Below are positions 3,001 to 49,173 of a stretch of 64,000 nucleotides of DNA, in pieces. Under the pieces are notes generated by a model. That model was given only the letters and a program-made list of their open reading frames with translations. It made no database searches and was not told the origin of the DNA. Numbering within the stretch: the stretch's first letter is position 1; each line of letters starts with the position of its first letter. The translations under genes and the position numbers were made by a program. The stretch covers positions 3,802 through 67,801 of the forward strand of contig JACDEI010000021.1 in NCBI GenBank assembly GCA_013816485.1. The letters are read 5' to 3'. The stretch comes from Planctomycetota bacterium. Lineage in GTDB: Bacteria; Planctomycetota; UBA11346.

Positions 3001-4393
3001 AGCCGCAAGTCCGCTGCCACTCGCCACCACCTTCACCGCCACCTTACCGATGGAAGAGTTCCGCACAGTGCAGGGTTTCCGTCTACATGCCCCTGGGGCC
3101 CAGACGTGGAGCACGCCAGCCTTAGCGATCTCCGGCGCAGCGGTCGAAACCTTCGATCGTGATGGCACCACCATCGCGCTGACCTTCAATCAACCGGTCG
3201 ATCCGCTCGCCATCGCGCAGGAGTTGTCGGTCGAGATCATTCCCGCTGAAGTCTCGCTAGTGGTCACTCCATCCGCGGACGCGTCCGCAGTCGCCGTTGT
3301 GCCAACGACGGCGGTCAGCAGCGAACCAGTGGTGAGCACCGACCAGCCAGCAGCTAGCGGTGAATCAGCCAACGGTTTGCCAGCGATCATTACCGACTCG
3401 GCAGTCGCCAGTGACCAGCAGCCCAACGAGTCCGCCGTCAGCAACGACCAGCCAGTCGCCACACCAGTCACCAAGCCAGTCACCACACCAGTCACCAAGC
3501 CAGTCACCACACCAGTCACCAAGCCAGCCGTGGTCCGCGCCATCACCACCGGTTCGGCCACAACGATACGACTGTTGCTCGCTGCGCCCGTGCGTGGCAG
3601 TGCGATGTTACGTCTGCCCGCTGGCACGATTGGCGTCGCCGGTCCGCTCGGGTTGGATAAGGCTTGGGAACAACGCGTGCCGCTGCAACAGACCTTGCAC
3701 CTGACCCAGGGCGAGGTGGTGGTGCCGAGTCACGGCGATGTACGCGTCGACGTGGCGGTGAGCGATCCCGCCGCGCCGCGTGAACTGCTCGCGCCGGTGG
3801 TGAGCGTCGATCCGGCAGTGCCAGTGACCGTCAGCACGACTGATACCGGCTTATCGTTGGTTGGAGCCTTCGTGCCCGGCCAAAGCTACCGCATCGCCAT
3901 TGCCGCCACGTGGCCGGATGAGCCGAGCACCAGCGGCCATGTGCTCACAGCCTACACCGCCGCCAGCACGGTCAGCATCACCATCCCGGAGCGTCCAGCG
4001 GGTATCTGGCCGGTGGAGAACGAAGTGATCGATGGCACTCAGCGTCTGGCGGCGCACGCCGTGCCACGCGCGGATGTGATGCTGCTCACCGGCAGCGATG
4101 ATGAGTGTGTCGCCAGTCGCGAGATCACCTGGACCAGCCCTGGCGATGCGCCGGCGTTGCTCGATCTCGATGACCTGACGCAGGATCAACCGGCGGCGCA
4201 GTACCGACTGCGGGTCACCAGCGGTGGTGAGATGCCCGTCACCAGTGATCAGTCGCTGGTGATCGAAAATCTGCACGTCCGTCCGCAGGCGCTGTTCGCC
4301 GCGCTCAGCGACTGGGCGCTCGCCGCCCTCGCCGGCAACGAAGCGGCTGATGTGCCGGTGCGCATGGTGCGCATGGCCAGCGCCAGTCGTTAG
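2..4393 (+). CDS. scpA: ScpA (SMC kleisin) N-terminal domain fused to a long Pro/Ala/Glu/Thr-rich linker, a TM helix and alpha-2-macroglobulin-like Ig domains; 5' end outside window
   Basis: DILEVPLSLIVDQF...AGEFILMAATLLEFKAR...DPRESLLRSLLAYRRFKEAA and VMATLELARQRFVEVDQPEQFGDI match ScpA; frame is open from base 2; hydrophobic WLLLAIFIASNAIWAGVTWLTW at about 2741-2806; PPLPGRWSWSGPRTLVF resembles bacterial A2M N-terminal domains. Confidence 0.8.
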   Translation, partial: DILEVPLSLIVDQFVDTVRSWQDADLDVAGEFILMAATLLEFKARTIAPPLEVAEEGAEDEPMFDPRESLLRSLLAYRRFKEAAQGLGDLEVARRPLLERQFREHVPEAPPEDSDIDLGEIDLSLLATTCERILSRIGGLAPRTVMADEMPLGVRIVTMLDELAVRERTTIRELLSGNTSRVVHITTVMATLELARQRFVEVDQPEQFGDIALRLRAAEEREREPHLPPPEPDGAKRRRKLPLVTFTAPASPGASPSDDEGVDEAPEEPHETDEQRFLRDLEEATRVSAVLAITANVEASFTAHWYTLHPELKPVAAPPSPAPEPVVKRFPPRRTTPPAVAPANEVPAAPVTESPATTTEDAVSVVAVDSAPAEAEVIPAAIAAADAETSVIAESPAVFVSVVDTLPPAPEPIAERAQPVESPTAEPSADVPSAAPAQSPASETPTVTTTNEAPVVPAQHVLPVEEWPVMHAMPAAEEAPHPLDTIASDDPAAVNALLSGQAPRAGQNIDDEEEEEEEEEEDEIDPDELLGDDPALVNAAIQADRQRPPVEPRAVSEITIPTATETSVWTAPFDRGQTVADVDDDVVTPSSEQSAPVVADGPDVVVAASAVSEPPTAASVTAEVVAPSLNVEAVAPAAVHLVEPTPTTAPLILPAAAAVPAAVPGLTQIDDDLEPDDQDDRAEGLNANDPALVDAAHQADTPRASINLHPVHDLTIPTATETTVWTAPVDRGQTAAEVDEEADEAADEEIEKEAELPAEVATHNALDVAEVTAASAPITPPVAEAIFVIVAPEVAVPASTSAVSVPSFSDPTPTTAPLVLPERVAETAMAIVPVTVEIVTSAPVVTPVAPVEDHAVAEDPPPPEDGPPPAAPPVPPPVPPPVPPPPRSESPLPAPTTTPITNRPMSPPPRSKAWLLLAIFIASNAIWAGVTWLTWVPRDVLEVAVTERGGTTEHPTLVWRFNLDVVDAERQARPPELVPHLTPPLPGRWSWSGPRTLVFEAASPLPLATTFTATLPMEEFRTVQGFRLHAPGAQTWSTPALAISGAAVETFDRDGTTIALTFNQPVDPLAIAQELSVEIIPAEVSLVVTPSADASAVAVVPTTAVSSEPVVSTDQPAASGESANGLPAIITDSAVASDQQPNESAVSNDQPVATPVTKPVTTPVTKPVTTPVTKPAVVRAITTGSATTIRLLLAAPVRGSAMLRLPAGTIGVAGPLGLDKAWEQRVPLQQTLHLTQGEVVVPSHGDVRVDVAVSDPAAPRELLAPVVSVDPAVPVTVSTTDTGLSLVGAFVPGQSYRIAIAATWPDEPSTSGHVLTAYTAASTVSITIPERPAGIWPVENEVIDGTQRLAAHAVPRADVMLLTGSDDECVASREITWTSPGDAPALLDLDDLTQDQPAAQYRLRVTSGGEMPVTSDQSLVIENLHVRPQALFAALSDWALAALAGNEAADVPVRMVRMASASR
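3452..3528 (+). repeat. In-frame 24-bp tandem repeat (PVTKPVTT, about 3 copies)
   Basis: ccagtcaccaagccagtcaccaca repeated. Confidence 0.9.
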
Positions 4394-5430
4394 ATGGTTT
4401 TTTTCGGCTTCCGCGGTCCCGCCGACCCGGTCGGCAAGGGCACCAGATCCGCGCCAGCGATCTCGCCGCGCGCGATCTGGAAATGTCCCAGCGCCGCGAC
4501 CATAGCCGCGTTGTCAGCGCAGTGTTTCGTTGCCGGCAGGTAGAGTTCGAGGCCGGCCATCGCCGCGTCGCGTGCGACCCGCGCCCGCAGGGCACGGTTG
4601 CACGCCACCCCACCGCCGACCGCGATCGCGCGCACGCCACGTTGGCGCGCGGCGAGCAGCAGCTTGGTCGCGAGGCAGTCGACCACCGCGGTCTGGAACG
4701 CCGCGCACGCATCGTCGATGCCACGTGCATCGAGCCGCAGGGGATCCTTGCCCAGCGGCCCACGTGCCTGGTAGAGCAGCGCGGTCTTGATGCCGGCGAA
4801 GCTTAGGCGCAGCGTGTCATCATTCAGGAAGCTGCGCGGCAACGTCATCGCAGCGGCATTGCCACGAGCCGCGCGTGCGTCGATCTGCGGCCCGCCGGGA
4901 TAACCAAGCCCGAGGGTTGCCGCCGCCTTGTCGAAGGCCTCGCCCGCCGCGTCGTCGATGGTGCCGCCGATCGGCTGGAAACGGCCGGGGGCCTCGCCTA
5001 GGTAGAAATGACTGTGCCCGCCCGATGCCACCAGACCTACCAGCGGATACATCACCGCCGCGCGGTCGAGGTGGATCGCCGCGAGGTGTGCCTGGATGTG
5101 ATCGACCGCGGCGAGCGGCAGGCCGCGCCGTTGCGCGATGACCTTGGCCGCGGTGACCCCGGTCAGCAGGCTGCCGATGAGTCCCGGCCACGCACCCACC
5201 GCCACGCCACCGAGCGCATCGAGCGTGACGCCGGCCTGGATGAGCACCCGTTCGATCAGCCCGGGCAGCGAGGCGACGTGTCCGCGTGCAGCCAGTTCCG
5301 GCACCACACCGCCCCAGGCGGCGAAATCGTCGGCCTGCGAAGCGATGACCTCGGCGAGCACGGTGGTGCCGTCGCGCACCAGGGCGACCGCGGTCTCATC
5401 GCAACTGCTTTCGATACCGAGCACCAGCAT
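4390..5430 (-). CDS. tsaD: tRNA N6-adenosine threonylcarbamoyltransferase TsaD
   Basis: MLVLGIESSCDETA, GGVVPELAARGH, HIQAH, SGGHS, DDAAGEAFDK, GGVACN and DNAAMVA motifs; start reassigned to ATG 5430. Confidence 0.97.
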   Translation of the reverse strand: MLVLGIESSCDETAVALVRDGTTVLAEVIASQADDFAAWGGVVPELAARGHVASLPGLIERVLIQAGVTLDALGGVAVGAWPGLIGSLLTGVTAAKVIAQRRGLPLAAVDHIQAHLAAIHLDRAAVMYPLVGLVASGGHSHFYLGEAPGRFQPIGGTIDDAAGEAFDKAAATLGLGYPGGPQIDARAARGNAAAMTLPRSFLNDDTLRLSFAGIKTALLYQARGPLGKDPLRLDARGIDDACAAFQTAVVDCLATKLLLAARQRGVRAIAVGGGVACNRALRARVARDAAMAGLELYLPATKHCADNAAMVAALGHFQIARGEIAGADLVPLPTGSAGPRKPKKTI

Positions 5431-5640: not shown

Positions 5641-6579
5641 GTGCCCAGGGCTTCTGGGCGTGAGCGGCAGGCAGATCCAGTGAATCCCGTGCCCGGCGAT
5701 CCGCTACCCGACCAGCCGGCAACGGGCGCGCCCGGCTCGATCAGCGAGTTGTTGGCCGCCGCAACTTCGCCCGCAACTTCGTCCGCAGCCTTCGATGCCG
5801 GCTTCATCCACCGCGAACGCATGGCCGGCCTGGGTGAACTGACCGCCGGCATCGCCCACGAACTGAACAACCCCATCGGTTACATCGGTAGCAATCTCAA
5901 CACCCTGCGGCGTTACGTCGAAACGGTGTCGGCGCTCATGGCGCAGGCCCAGGCGTTCATGGAGCCAGCGCAACGCGGCGCCTGGGAACAGGCGCTGGAC
6001 GCCGCGCGTTGGCCGATCATCGGCAAGGATCTGGTGGCGGTGGTCGATGAGACGCAGCAGGGCGCCGAACAGGTGAGGAACATCGTCGGCGATCTCAAAC
6101 TGCTGGCGCGTACCTCGATCACGCCAGAGCAGGGTAGCGTCGATCAGTGCGTGTTGTCGGCGCTCACGGTGTTGACGCACCAACTCAAACACCGCTGTCA
6201 CGTCGAACGCGATCTCGCCAGTCGCGACGGTCTGCTGCTGGTGCGCCCGCAGATCATCCAACTGGTGATCAACCTGGTGCACAACGCGGGGCAGGCGGTG
6301 GCGTCCGGCGGACATGTTCGTCTGACCAGCCGCAGCCAGGAGAGTCTGGTGACACTCACCATCGAGGACGACGGGCCAGGGGTCCCCGAACATCAGCGGC
6401 TGGAGATCTTCCAGCCGTTCTACACCAGCAAGAAAGGTGGCACCGGACTGGGATTGCCGATCGTCGCGCGCATTGCGCGCAACCACGGCGGCGATGTGCG
6501 GATCGACCGCAGCCCCGACCTGGGTGGTGCGCGTTTCATCGTCGAATTGCGGCACTGGCAAGGAGCGGGAGTCGCGTGA
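5641..6579 (+). CDS. Cytoplasmic histidine kinase (HisKA + HATPase_c) with no sensor or TM domain
   Basis: AGIAHELNNP H-box, NLVHNA N-box, DDGPG, FYTSK, GTGLGL; start uncertain (5641 or 5680). Confidence 0.92.
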   Translation: MPRASGRERQADPVNPVPGDPLPDQPATGAPGSISELLAAATSPATSSAAFDAGFIHRERMAGLGELTAGIAHELNNPIGYIGSNLNTLRRYVETVSALMAQAQAFMEPAQRGAWEQALDAARWPIIGKDLVAVVDETQQGAEQVRNIVGDLKLLARTSITPEQGSVDQCVLSALTVLTHQLKHRCHVERDLASRDGLLLVRPQIIQLVINLVHNAGQAVASGGHVRLTSRSQESLVTLTIEDDGPGVPEHQRLEIFQPFYTSKKGGTGLGLPIVARIARNHGGDVRIDRSPDLGGARFIVELRHWQGAGVA

Positions 6580-7439: not shown

Positions 7440-9037
7440 ATCTTCCCATCGGCATTGTCTTGGTGGTCGACGACGACCCCAATGTGCTCAAGGCTCTCGG
7501 ACGTTTAGACCTCGGGCGGCAGTTCACACTGCGGTTGTGCGCGTCGCGGGCGGAGGCCGAGCAGGTCATCGACAAGGAGGAGATCGAAGTCGCGCTGATC
7601 GATCAGCACCTGGGTGCGGGCCAGCCCACCGGCCTTGATCTGCTGGGGTATCTGCGCCAACGCGACAGCGACTGCTTCCGCATCATCTTCACCGGCGCGG
7701 TGGATCTCGACTTCGCGGTGTCGGCGATCAACCAGGGCCTGATCGACGCCTTCCTGGTCAAACCGTGGACCAGCGAGCATCTCATCTCGTTGCTCAACCA
7801 GGGTTGTGAGACCGCGCTGCTGCGACGGCACAACCGCCAGCTCATGCGCGAGATCGCGGGCCGCAACGCCGCGCTCGAACATCTTAACCGCCAGCTCGAA
7901 GGCATGGTCGAAGCGCGCACCGCCAGCCTGCGCGAGACGCTCGATCAGCTCCGGCAGCATCAGGTCGACATGGTGCGTCTGGAAACCCAGGCGACGGTGT
8001 CGCAGATCGCGCGCGGTCTGGCACATGAGCTGAACAATCCGTTGGCTGCGATCATGGGCTACAGCCAACGGCTCAGACGCCGGCTCGGCAGCGACCTGGA
8101 CACCGTCCAACGCCTGGACGTGATCCTCAAAGAGGTCGACCGCTGTCGCGGTTTGGTAGAACAGTTGCGCAACCTCGCCGCGCCGCTCGATGAAGCGGTG
8201 CGGCCATGCGATCCGCTGGCGGTCATCGATACCGCGACCAAACGCCTGCAAAGCACCGGTCTGACCGTGCCCGAGATCCAGGTGCAGGGGGTGGTGCCGC
8301 TGGTGCTGGCCGGTCCGCGGTCGCTCACGCGCGTCTTCGAACAGGTGCTCGACAATGCGCGCCTAGCTGGTGCCCGTATCTGCACGGTATCCGCCACCAG
8401 CAGCGAAGGCCGCGTGCGGCTGCTACTGACCAACGACGGCGCCACACCCGAGGAGGAGACCACCCACAACGCCACCCGGCCCTTCTTCACCACCCGCGCC
8501 GATTCCGGTCATCGTGGGCTGGGGTTGTCGATGGCGTTGGCGCTGCTGCGTGAACAGGACGGCGCGGTTACCCTCGATCGCCGTGAAGACGGGCAACCCG
8601 GAGCGGTGTGCATCGTGTCATTGCCACTCTCGGGAGCCGGCCCGCTGGTTGTCGCCGAGACTCAGGCGCATCCCGCATCGGGTCAGGTGCTGGTGATCGA
8701 CGACGACCCGATGATCGCCGAACTGCTGAGCGATTACCTGCACGAGGACGGCATCAACGTGCTGGTGGTTTCCACCGCCGAGCAGGCCAAGACCGCCCTC
8801 GCGAACAAACCGATCTGCGCGGTGATCGCCGATTACCACCTGGAGTACGGTTCCGGCATCGACGTGCTGCGGGCGCTCATCGCCCGCCAACCCGGACTCG
8901 CCGGTCACGTGGCGGTGTTCACCGGCGCGAACGACGCTGCGACCCTGGAACGCATCCAGCGCGACACCGGCTTCCCGGTCCTGGCCAAACCGTTCCGCCT
9001 GGAGCAGGTGCAGAAGCTGGTGCGCGAGATCTTGTAA
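7436..9037 (+). CDS. Hybrid kinase REC-HisKA-HATPase-REC
   Basis: VLVVDDD...FLVKPW; GLAHELNNP; PFFTT; GLGLS; C-terminal VLVIDDD...LAKPF. Confidence 0.92.
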   Translation: MNLPIGIVLVVDDDPNVLKALGRLDLGRQFTLRLCASRAEAEQVIDKEEIEVALIDQHLGAGQPTGLDLLGYLRQRDSDCFRIIFTGAVDLDFAVSAINQGLIDAFLVKPWTSEHLISLLNQGCETALLRRHNRQLMREIAGRNAALEHLNRQLEGMVEARTASLRETLDQLRQHQVDMVRLETQATVSQIARGLAHELNNPLAAIMGYSQRLRRRLGSDLDTVQRLDVILKEVDRCRGLVEQLRNLAAPLDEAVRPCDPLAVIDTATKRLQSTGLTVPEIQVQGVVPLVLAGPRSLTRVFEQVLDNARLAGARICTVSATSSEGRVRLLLTNDGATPEEETTHNATRPFFTTRADSGHRGLGLSMALALLREQDGAVTLDRREDGQPGAVCIVSLPLSGAGPLVVAETQAHPASGQVLVIDDDPMIAELLSDYLHEDGINVLVVSTAEQAKTALANKPICAVIADYHLEYGSGIDVLRALIARQPGLAGHVAVFTGANDAATLERIQRDTGFPVLAKPFRLEQVQKLVREIL

Positions 9038-9041
9038 GACA

Positions 9042-9176
9042 GGTCCGGGCGCTTCGCTGGTACGAAGGGTACGAGCGCTTCGCTGTACGAAGGGTCCGAG
9101 CGCTTCGCTGGTACGAAGGGTCCGAGCGCTTCGCTGGTACGAAGGGTCCGTACCCCTCGTACCCCTCGTACCCTTC
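9042..9176. repeat. Four 25-26 bp tandem repeats followed by three inverted 9-mers, between convergent genes
   Basis: GGTCCGAGCGCTTCGCTGGTACGAAG-type unit x4, then GTACCC(C/T)TC x3. Confidence 0.92.
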
Positions 9177-10020: not shown

Positions 10021-10165
10021 GTACTACGCGCCGAAATCTCCTTTTCACACGAAGAAATTTCGGCGCGTAGTACGTGGGGTGCGGGGCGAAGCCCTGCAAC
10101 AACAGCATCCCAGCCCGGTGGAGCCGATAATGAACCTTGGTTCCGGCTCCGCCGGGATGGGCTGT
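10021..10165. other. Structured divergent intergenic region (17-bp perfect inverted repeat plus two more hairpins)
   Basis: GTACTACGCGCCGAAAT (10021-10037) / ATTTCGGCGCGTAGTAC (10057-10073); GCGGGGC-GAA-GCCCTGC; CCGGTGGAGCCG / CGGCTCCGCCGG. Confidence 0.75.
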
Positions 10166-46393: not shown

Positions 46394-46649
46394 CGTGTTA
46401 ATATAGAGGGGGTGTTTATCGTGCCGTGTGCCATCAGCCGATTCGAAGGCCTGTCACCGGCCCATATCCACTCCGTTCCCCCGCGTTGGCCGGTCCGTCC
46501 AGCCCCAAACTCCTGCCCTGGTTGCGTAGACCGGCAGCAGAGACCTGGGGCAGGCCGGTCATTGTCAGCCCGGTTCTGCTACTAGACTCCGCCTCCCCCG
46601 TTGAAACCCCCGCCCGGCCCTTGGCCGGACGGTGACCCTGAGAGATCCC

Positions 46650-48407
<1,758 letters not shown>

Positions 48408-48408
48408 G

Positions 48409-48608
48409 TTCAGGCCTGTTTTCGCCTACGGCGAAAACACCCCGCTGCGCGGGGTTACCCGGCTTCGCCGGGTAGGCCTGAGTTCGCCGTCAGGGGGTCT
48501 GGCGACCCCCCGACAACGCGCCTGCGGCGCTGCCCCCCTAACGCGAACGCGCCACTGCGTGCTGCGCACGCCATCCGCTGCGCGGATGCTCGCCTGCGGC
48601 GAGGTGGC
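48409..48608. other. Highly structured element: multi-way junctions with seven TNC/GNA-triloop hairpins
   Basis: Hairpins read directly from the sequence (see findings). Confidence 0.8.
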
Positions 48609-48632
48609 TGGGTTGGTTTGAGTCGGGAATAA

Positions 48633-48669
48633 AACACGAAACGCCGGCCTTTGGCCGGCGTTTCGTGTT
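48633..48669. terminator. Bidirectional terminator-like hairpin
   Basis: AACACGAAACGCCGGCC-TTT-GGCCGGCGTTTCGTGTT between convergent genes. Confidence 0.8.
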
Positions 48670-48687: not shown

Positions 48688-49173
48688 TCAGGACGGCTGA
48701 GGTCCTGGAGGACTTGCGGGTGCCGCCGGCTTGGTGAAATGGAAGTCGAGGTGGCATGACGCCACGTCGGTGCCGCTGACGGTCAACCACAACAACGTGC
48801 GGATCGCGAGCACCGAGCCGACCACGCGATCCTTCGCTGGGATTGGCGCCGGGATGCGCAGCTCCGGCAGGTGCAGGGCCATCTCGAACACCGGCACCTG
48901 GGTTTCATTGATGACGATCTCCGCCTGCGCCTCCAGCATCGGCCGTGCGTTCGGGGCTGCGCCGCGATCCATCATCGTCAATTTCATCGGGTAGGTTCCC
49001 GGTCGTTCGACCTGGAGTCGGATGTAGGCCTGGATGGTGTGCAGCACCAGTTCGTCGTTCGGCGTCTGCCAATGCGTATACGTCCCCGCGATGATCCATT
49101 TCCCCTGATCGGTGCGGTACACCTGATCAGCGAGGATGAGCGTACCGCGGATGTCGCGTAGGGGGGTGGTCAT
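48688..49173 (-). CDS. Hypothetical protein (DUF6941-like beta-sandwich)
   Basis: LILADQVYRTDQGKWIIAGTY N-terminal pattern. Confidence 0.65.
   Translation of the reverse strand: MTTPLRDIRGTLILADQVYRTDQGKWIIAGTYTHWQTPNDELVLHTIQAYIRLQVERPGTYPMKLTMMDRGAAPNARPMLEAQAEIVINETQVPVFEMALHLPELRIPAPIPAKDRVVGSVLAIRTLLWLTVSGTDVASCHLDFHFTKPAAPASPPGPQPS

Follow-up and report, generated by a model that had tools for sequence, protein, structure and literature searches.

The 200-bp structured element directly downstream of rpoD in a 5.2-Mb Planctomycetota assembly (101 contigs, 63.9% G+C) is not specific to rpoD: it represents one copy of a repeat with conserved structure that is dispersed in an uncultured lineage of this phylum. 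On balance, and with slightly better than even confidence, we read it as an orphan REP/BIME-like repeat, restricted to its lineage and transcribed together with its neighbour as a 3'-UTR structure. The conspicuous fold behind a central regulatory gene is in this case a mobile-looking repeat copy and not a dedicated regulator, a distinction that averts misannotation, and the family to which it belongs is conserved more in shape than in sequence. We regard as new the composite unit of junction plus core, its head-to-tail layout and the near-invariance of the core across genera, together with the occupancy of a tRNA array, the orientation linked to transcription and the lack of a linked transposase.

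Setting and fold of the element downstream of rpoD

The window, that is, the whole 64,000-nt stretch of DNA analysed, holds the following features around the element:

46632..48407, + strand: rpoD, primary sigma-70 factor of 591 aa; open reading frame with its TGA stop at 48405-48407
48410..48481, + strand: junction module of unit 1 (domain 1); closing stem TCAGGCCT/AGGCCTGA and three triloop hairpins with loops TAC, TGC and TTC
48482..48538, + strand: D2 module of unit 1; linker, GGGGGTC-TGGC-GACCCCC, CGACAACGCG, GCGCC-TGC-GGCGC and tail TGCCCCCC
48539..48609, + strand: junction module of unit 2 (domain 3); GCCAC/GTGGC around three TGC-triloop hairpins
48610..48627, + strand: putative remnant of the unit 2 linker and start of its D2 hairpin, GGGTTGGTTTGAGTCGGG, as judged from the linkers of other units
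48635..48667, no strand assigned: native GC-rich hairpin CACGAAACGCCGGCC-TTT-GGCCGGCGTTTCGTG, present also in the closest relative (locus L003)
48688..49173, - strand: convergent gene of 161 aa with a weak, sub-threshold DUF6941 match; orthologue in L003, L002 and L004

The RpoD protein matches the Pfam sigma-70 regions 1.1, 1.2, 2, 3 and 4, each above cut-off, and its relatives at 70% identity or more are nearly all encoded in Planctomycetota MAGs. The element starts 2 nt past the TGA stop. Downstream of it, the hairpin at 48635-48667 has TTTTATT behind it on the minus strand and therefore likely terminates the convergent gene and perhaps also rpoD; a consensus terminator scan did not report it. 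The same scan called no terminator-like site within 48409-48627, where none of the eight hairpins has a T-run directly behind it, a difference from intrinsic terminators. The convergent gene, 88% identical in nucleotides to its counterpart in L003, lies in a region that is open on both strands (161 aa on the minus strand, 87 and 96 aa on the plus strand), and the amino-acid identity to L003, 92% in the minus frame vs 84% in the opposite one, favours the minus frame.

All eight hairpins that the initial annotation had placed in 48409-48608 were found at their positions. A perfect-stem scan of the plus strand confirmed c-TNC-g loops in seven of them (48417-48439, 48439-48455, 48456-48474, 48518-48530, 48557-48571, 48572-48588 and 48589-48603), each 13-23 nt long with a stem of 5-10 bp, the eighth being GGGGGTC-TGGC-GACCCCC at 48493-48510 with its 4-nt loop. 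These seven make up a large share of the 18 c-TNC-g or c-GNA-g hairpins with a stem of at least 5 bp that the 64-kb window contains. Three of the four minimum-energy folds, namely both plus-strand folds and the minus-strand DNA fold, contained the enclosing stems of the three proposed multi-hairpin domains; in the minus-strand RNA fold, domains 2 and 3 were paired differently. Compared with shuffled sequences, the two strands gave z-scores of -7.4 and -7.0 as DNA and of -5.8 and -8.0 as RNA, and none of 200 shuffles folded as well for any strand and parameter set.

The limits and the generality of the proposed element needed some correction. Its right end, set at 48608, is probably near 48627, the linker and next-module bases up to there matching those of other copies. 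The domain 2 stem GTTCGC/GCGAAC is present in this copy but is not a general feature, as it does not belong to the pairs common to 21 aligned units. The same loops had also been pointed out near 9050, 10088 and 52074; these sites are no copies of the element but a tandem repeat of another kind, with 32-nt units, and two short hairpins that stand alone.

Neither the four tandem units of about 32 nt at 9045-9150, directly past the stop codon of a gene, nor a perfect 17-bp hairpin between genes at 10021-10075 is a member of the family to which the element belongs.

The initial annotation had further proposed that selection acts on the folding of the minus strand as single-stranded DNA, displaying c-GNA-g mini-hairpins, with the element serving, for example, as a substrate for an HUH/Y1 enzyme (RAYT or IS200-like) or as a priming signal. 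We consider this proposal rather unlikely, and the evidence bearing on it is taken up as it arises below. As DNA, the minus strand is only slightly favoured (-79.4 vs -76.1 kcal/mol for the plus strand), a small advantage that lends the proposal no real support, and it is slightly more stable in both chemistries; the folding comparison cannot choose between strands or chemistries because the parameter sets are expected not to model the special GNA loop.

A composite unit dispersed in the genome and its relatives

What had been described as a single 200-bp element with stems that all differ is instead a mosaic, and its domains 1 and 2 have sequence relatives in the genome. In one unit, of about 125 nt, a T-rich linker leads from a variable four-way junction, formed by three triloop hairpins, to a conserved D2 module of about 50 nt with two hairpins; in D2, a G-run hairpin and CGACAACGCG are followed by a TNC-looped hairpin of 5 bp and a tail rich in C. 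The rpoD element corresponds to one and a half such units: unit 1 is complete (48410-48538), its 24-nt D2 core with a 13-nt hairpin lying at 48513-48536, and unit 2 runs from 48539 to about 48627. As 48610-48627 appears to be the remnant of a linker and of a D2 start, unit 2 is probably truncated inside the D2 hairpin. The junction module of unit 1 has sequence relatives at C98:11647 and C30:6866 (contig and position in this genome) and in the related genomes G002, G006, G007 and G024, with covarying stems. That of unit 2 is single-copy by sequence, with no other BLAST match, and resembles other modules of this genome, such as those at C30:3971, C30:5349 and C71:298423, only in its three-hairpin architecture, a short stem closing over three triloop hairpins that abut one another. 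Two other kinds of repeat were considered and dropped: a CRISPR, for lack of identical repeat units with spacers between them, and an integron attC site, since each hairpin is a short perfect palindrome and not one long bulged stem.

A scan of the genome for clustered triloop hairpins retrieved dozens of similar clusters, each with its loops in a single orientation, and BLAST found relatives of domains 1 and 2 on 13 other contigs. Searched at E <= 0.01, this genome gave 30 matches to a covariance model (R1) built from 21 units out of 5 genomes; 22 of the matches, in about 13 loci, have an E-value below 1e-4, and six of these 22 fall inside the tRNA array described below. All 22 strong matches lie outside predicted genes, as called with a crude codon-usage ORF scorer. 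Among the 48 genomes of the family, the D2 core (allowing up to 2 mismatches) occurs patchily in 18, belonging to 8 of 18 genera, at 1-32 copies each, the reversed control pattern giving 0-1 matches. This genome holds 18 cores and its 47 relatives 0-32, counts taken from incomplete assemblies in which repeats are often unassembled, and a maximum of 32 is low for a REP family. The core is nearly invariant between genera. A DNA search for the unit matched 11 of 41 relatives' genomes, all from the same family-level group, and none of 16 further genomes of the phylum that belong to other families. Full units are present in G002, G006, G007 and G024; in other genera the element is often D2 by itself, directly past a stop codon, and in the relatives sampled the cores lie 0-174 nt downstream of the preceding open frame.

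D2 also occurs in tandem without the junction module. At C3:16551-16700 of this genome (G000, locus L107) three D2 copies follow each other with a 49-nt period, and DNA contigs from the sequencing runs X1, X4 and X5 join the end of one D2 to the start of another with TTTT between them; therefore, tandem D2 arrays exist in several samples. In run X1 the DNA contigs break at the D2 module 48482-48538, where depth is 6-8 times that of the flanks. The RNA runs contained 0.10-0.17 of the sampled words, in the form of contigs, so that transcript ends and strand are unreadable in them; contig depth in run X15 was 4-7 over D2 and zero over domains 1 and 3 and over the four bins right after the element, a pattern that is no argument about transcription either way.

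No Rfam family matched anywhere in the window at the gathering score, and a relaxed local scan gave chance-level, sub-threshold matches at best (26.5 bits vs a gathering score of 55), so the element does not correspond to a known Rfam RNA. Literature searches on Planctomycetes REPs and on intrinsic terminators turned up no description of the family, although the supplementary tables of the REP papers might list related repeats.

Selection on structure and loop asymmetry

The helices are kept by compensatory change across copies and the structure is under selection. In the alignment of 21 units from 5 genomes, 24 of 45 pairs changed on both sides and 89% of the cells were paired, against 42-48% when partners were slid by 1-3 columns, and the covariation score was 0.229, against 0.093 in shuffles and 0.03-0.08 when slid. 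None of 500 shuffles reached any of the five observed measures. Pairing is almost purely Watson-Crick and G-U pairs are very rare in the stems.

The loops are conserved as well. In the 21 units, the four triloop hairpins have a TNC loop 70 times out of 84, with 2 GNA loops and 12 of other kinds, so that homologues do preserve them, and with stems covarying and loops kept across 21 copies and 5 genomes, the suggestion in the initial annotation of a non-autonomous repeated element selected for its structure is supported. A second repeat family of this genome, family A, has a junction of the same architecture. Its 28 copies (for example C24:70832-70957, C31:11040-11162 and C7:34312-34602 of G000), 15 of them between convergent genes, consist of 3-5 variable triloop hairpins with a three-hairpin junction and an invariant 22-nt tail, which in some copies has the terminator-like look of a GC hairpin followed by TTGTTGTT; their loops are TNC in 54 cases, GNA in 2 and other in 26, 15 of the latter being TNT.

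Both families together show 124 TNC vs 4 GNA loops on the sense strand, and this strand-specific asymmetry implies that some single-stranded form of one strand matters. It also argues for the minus-strand proposal, together with the almost purely Watson-Crick stems and with the reported high stability of d(GNA) loops closed by C-G in DNA (PMC3201870). The loops equal the most stable DNA mini-hairpin known, on the strand that is usually not the RNA. Stem mismatches of the G-T and A-C kind, taken as a strand test, were usable in only 10 cases among 360 hairpins. To our knowledge, there is no RNA rationale for c-UNC-g triloops, and the rarity of G-U pairs, unusual for a structure selected as RNA, is a point against our own RNA-level reading.

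Occupied and empty sites after rpoD

A unit follows the gene at just two, L002 and L009, of the 39 rpoD loci compared from relatives. In L002 (91% RpoD identity) a tandem pair of units sits where the element does here and points the same way, and the alignment of this locus to our genome is continuous from rpoD into D2. In the closest relative, L003 (98% RpoD identity), the search for an empty site after rpoD was successful: nothing of the element is found there and the orthologous GC hairpin (ACGCCGGCC...GTCGGCGT) lies about 30 nt past the rpoD stop, vs 225 nt here. This spacing and the orthologous downstream gene in L003 argue for an insertion here, or for a clean loss in L003, between the stop and the native hairpin. 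At L009:4773-4900, in another genus, a full unit directly past the rpoD stop has the opposite orientation, sitting antisense between rpoD and its apparent terminator, so that at least two independent events have placed a unit in the rpoD 3' region. A comparable look at the flanks of the C98 locus in 10 genomes of the genus yielded no orthologue, only the repeat itself being matched, and in the sequencing runs examined no contig joins across the rpoD element, so no empty-site allele was seen there. The hexamer TTGAGT at 48404-48409 recurs at 48618-48623, on both sides of the rpoD copy; we do not count it as evidence of a target-site duplication, given that GAGTTC also opens other copies and that this is a single case.

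These comparisons leave little of the idea that the element is a cis-regulator dedicated to rpoD, whether an attenuator, a riboswitch or a small RNA gene. Adjacency to a key regulatory gene and a very stable fold would suit such a role, but the element is missing after rpoD in 37 of 39 relatives, the closest one included, the same modules are found behind unrelated genes and between tRNAs, and Rfam has no match for it; we find this explanation hardly credible.

Y1 transposase genes and the element

The genome does carry HUH/Y1 genes, a point in favour of the minus-strand proposal. Its 10 Pfam Y1_Tnp matches are of two types, five IS200/IS605-like (NF033573, 63.9 bits in the one representative scanned) and five resembling REP-associated tyrosine transposases (NF047646, 79 bits vs a cut-off of 80, again in one representative). 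RAYT (TnpA-REP) enzymes of the Y1 class have been described as processing hairpin repeats with a strand-specific feature (PMC6006769). Clean presence and absence of the unit between relatives and the use of such triloops by Y1 genes with their own inverted REPs (C2:41101-41568) are likewise in favour of an HUH enzyme acting on the element.

Nevertheless, the expected linkage to HUH/RAYT genes was not observed: 34 Y1 loci from 11 genomes, taken with up to 1.5 kb of flank where the contig allows, have neither units nor cores flanking the gene, one orthologous Y1 pair having a core 1.3-1.4 kb away. The core-rich genomes G051 (32 cores, the most found) and G017 (14) have a single Y1 gene and one weak partial Y1 match, respectively, and the junction stems differ between copies, which poorly fits sequence-specific recognition. 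An origin from TnpB/IS605 elements was rejected as well, this genome having no TnpB match. The assemblies are 61-90% complete and a cognate transposase gene could therefore be unassembled.

Most of the IS200-like Y1 genes of about 155 aa (loci L074-L078) are bracketed by pairs of inverted two-hairpin repeats, in a REPtron-like fashion, and the repeat sequence differs from gene to gene, GTCCC-NNN-GGGAC plus CCCGGCGTT..AACGCCGGG being one example. The clearest case is L075 (G000:C2:41011-41662), with GTCCC-GCA-GGGAC around C2:41101-41568. The repeats flanking Y1 genes have GNA/TNC or AAC/GTT triloops and none of them is the rpoD element.

Orientation with respect to transcription and replication

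Counting contexts in which both neighbouring genes point the same way, copies are sense rather than antisense in family A (10 v 1), at the D loci of this genome (5 v 2), in relatives (5 v 2) and in G051, G017 and G003 (8 v 1, from 20 cores sampled in listing order). The sum, 28 sense v 6 antisense, has a binomial p of 2e-4, which overstates the bias because related copies are not independent; the gene calls behind these counts come from the crude codon-usage scorer mentioned above. Units and hairpins within a cluster share their orientation (for example in TTTTTTT strings and in the tandem units of L002), and at L146 one convergent pair was found with each copy beside its own gene. Co-orientation with transcription means that the strand that is usually single-stranded, as RNA, is the one with TNC/UNC and not with GNA loops. 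The 6 antisense cases, the full unit of L009 among them, show that orientation is not absolute and count against an RNA-level reading.

Whether local GC skew is positive or negative makes no difference to orientation (13 v 11 in family A, 5 v 6 for D2 cores), skew being only a proxy for replication direction in this 101-contig assembly; the skew persists along contigs and is uncorrelated with gene strand (r = -0.10). The anticipated strand bias relative to replication is thus absent by this proxy, and in this respect the element differs from IS200/IS605-derived miniatures, with their bias for the lagging-strand template. An orientation tied to transcription and unrelated to GC skew is a further argument against selection as minus-strand single-stranded DNA. 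What stands of that proposal is the strand-specific loop asymmetry, and what falls is the linkage to Y1/RAYT genes and the bias in replication strand.

The same counts admit a purely selfish or neutral palindromic mini-element, whose bias would reflect either the purging of harmful antisense and intragenic insertions or a bias at insertion. The patchy occurrence among genera (8 of 18) with copy numbers from 0 to 32, the presence or absence at the rpoD site among relatives, the tandem D2-only array at C3:16551-16700 and the D2 joints in DNA contigs of three runs would all be expected of such an element. We hold it to be unlikely in view of the long-range junction stems maintained by compensatory change across genomes, of the near-invariant D2 core across genera and of the consistent placement of copies right behind stop codons and tRNA ends.

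It can also be imagined that the element behaves in a SINE-like manner, being transcribed by read-through from the host gene and integrating as cDNA, the strand with the GNA loops. Sense orientation and a selected antisense single-stranded DNA form would both be explained in this way, and the genome has two reverse-transcriptase genes. These, however, look like ordinary group II intron proteins, to judge by eye from a YADD motif and a maturase-like tail; neither is near a copy, no hairpin cluster was found on their contig regions and neither a poly-A tract nor any other mark of retro-insertion was detected. We know of no SINE-like retro-element in bacteria and regard this explanation as highly improbable.

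Comparison with known repeats and proposed role

The reading that we favour, an orphan REP/BIME-like repeat, draws on a resemblance to REP/BIME sequences. According to the survey by Di Nocera et al. 2013 (PMC3733652), these are short palindromes, rich in GC and with very short loops, that lie outside genes, mostly downstream of them, and gather in mosaic clusters; their families are lineage-specific, with compensatory stem changes and a patchy distribution, as is the case here. The same text reports REPs in Planctomycetes, mostly downstream of genes, many plausibly transcribed and thought often to act as RNA, and distinguishes the GTAG and CGTC superfamilies of tagged REPs, the latter without a dedicated transposase, in agreement with the orphan status of our element.

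There are also differences. A REP is a single stem-loop of 20-40 bp, occurs in hundreds per genome and is arranged in BIMEs as inverted dimers, whereas the element, with single hairpins of 13-23 nt and a widely conserved core around one of 13 nt, is copied as a composite of about 125 nt with a three-hairpin four-way junction, has tens of copies per genome and lies head to tail. It carries no consistent GT[AG]G or CGTC tag: by eye, NGTC stands before the foot of the D2 hairpin in 16 of 21 aligned units (CGTC 3, TGTC 3, others 10), and the GTAG at 48472-48475 is found in the rpoD copy only. Unlike REPs with a transposase, the element has no linked RAYT. The likeness to REPtron/REPIN systems, as described by Quentin et al. 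2018 (PMC6006769), lies in the IS200-like and RAYT-like Y1 proteins encoded by the genome, some with inverted hairpin repeats of their own; the repeats flanking those genes here belong, however, to other families, and the orientation of the element follows transcription, not the replication proxy.

A modular intergenic build is shared with a further kind of repeat. The BOX elements of Streptococcus pneumoniae are composed of distinct boxes, some in variable number, have a predicted stable fold and are transcribed with neighbouring genes. They are unrelated to our element in sequence and host, and their modules are defined by sequence, whereas the junction module of our element is conserved mainly in structure.

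Lying between the rpoD stop and the native hairpin, the rpoD copy is probably transcribed as part of the rpoD 3' UTR, where, in our analysis, it would most likely form a stable block. Retained copies may thus act as RNA through a stable structure at the 3' end, one that could block 3'-to-5' exonucleases or favour termination. The rpoD copy, since it starts 2 nt past the stop codon, might in addition impede the ribosome as it terminates. For each of these effects there is a parallel in E. coli, where REPs stabilise upstream mRNA, attenuate transcription and stall ribosomes when located 15 nt or less from the stop codon, as stated in the corresponding report (PMC5082802). The spread of the family, for its part, presumably takes place via a strand-specific single-stranded step carried out by some enzyme.

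It is tempting to go further and regard the units as RNA punctuation, read by a lineage-specific RNA-binding protein or nuclease that sets 3' ends, and spread via antisense single-stranded DNA. Cloverleaf-like c-UNC-g RNA modules behind stop codons and between tRNA genes would be the signs of this punctuation, an idea to which we give only an outside chance. If it were true, one repeat would be under selection on both strands and in two chemistries, and the antisense c-GNA-g DNA form might be a cDNA, which would make of the family a bacterial SINE-like element. In practical terms, the element offers a handle for mapping transcript ends in metatranscriptomes of uncultured Planctomycetota, so far without genetics.

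Repeats in the tRNA array

A dense array of 20 tRNA genes on one strand occupies G000:C30:2455-15345, 16 of them within the 5.4 kb of locus L104 (C30:2300-7700). Its spacers hold several repeat families, including the six D-unit matches, all in the direction of the tRNAs, and the orthologous array of G006 (L098) also carries units.

Some tRNA-like sequences of the same array are themselves unusual. One, at L104:4001-4141 (G000:C30:6300-6440), bears several short GC hairpins, clustered, in the region of the variable arm and was not called by ARAGORN. Three others, also without an ARAGORN call, share an identical hairpin insert (GTGGCC-TGTCGTC-AGGCCA core) in their apparent T-loop, at L104:537-555, 4242-4260 and 5171-5189 (G000:C30:2836-2854, 6541-6559 and 7470-7488). 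These three may represent tRNA genes that have been interrupted or have decayed, or else tRNAs that carry an unusual insert.
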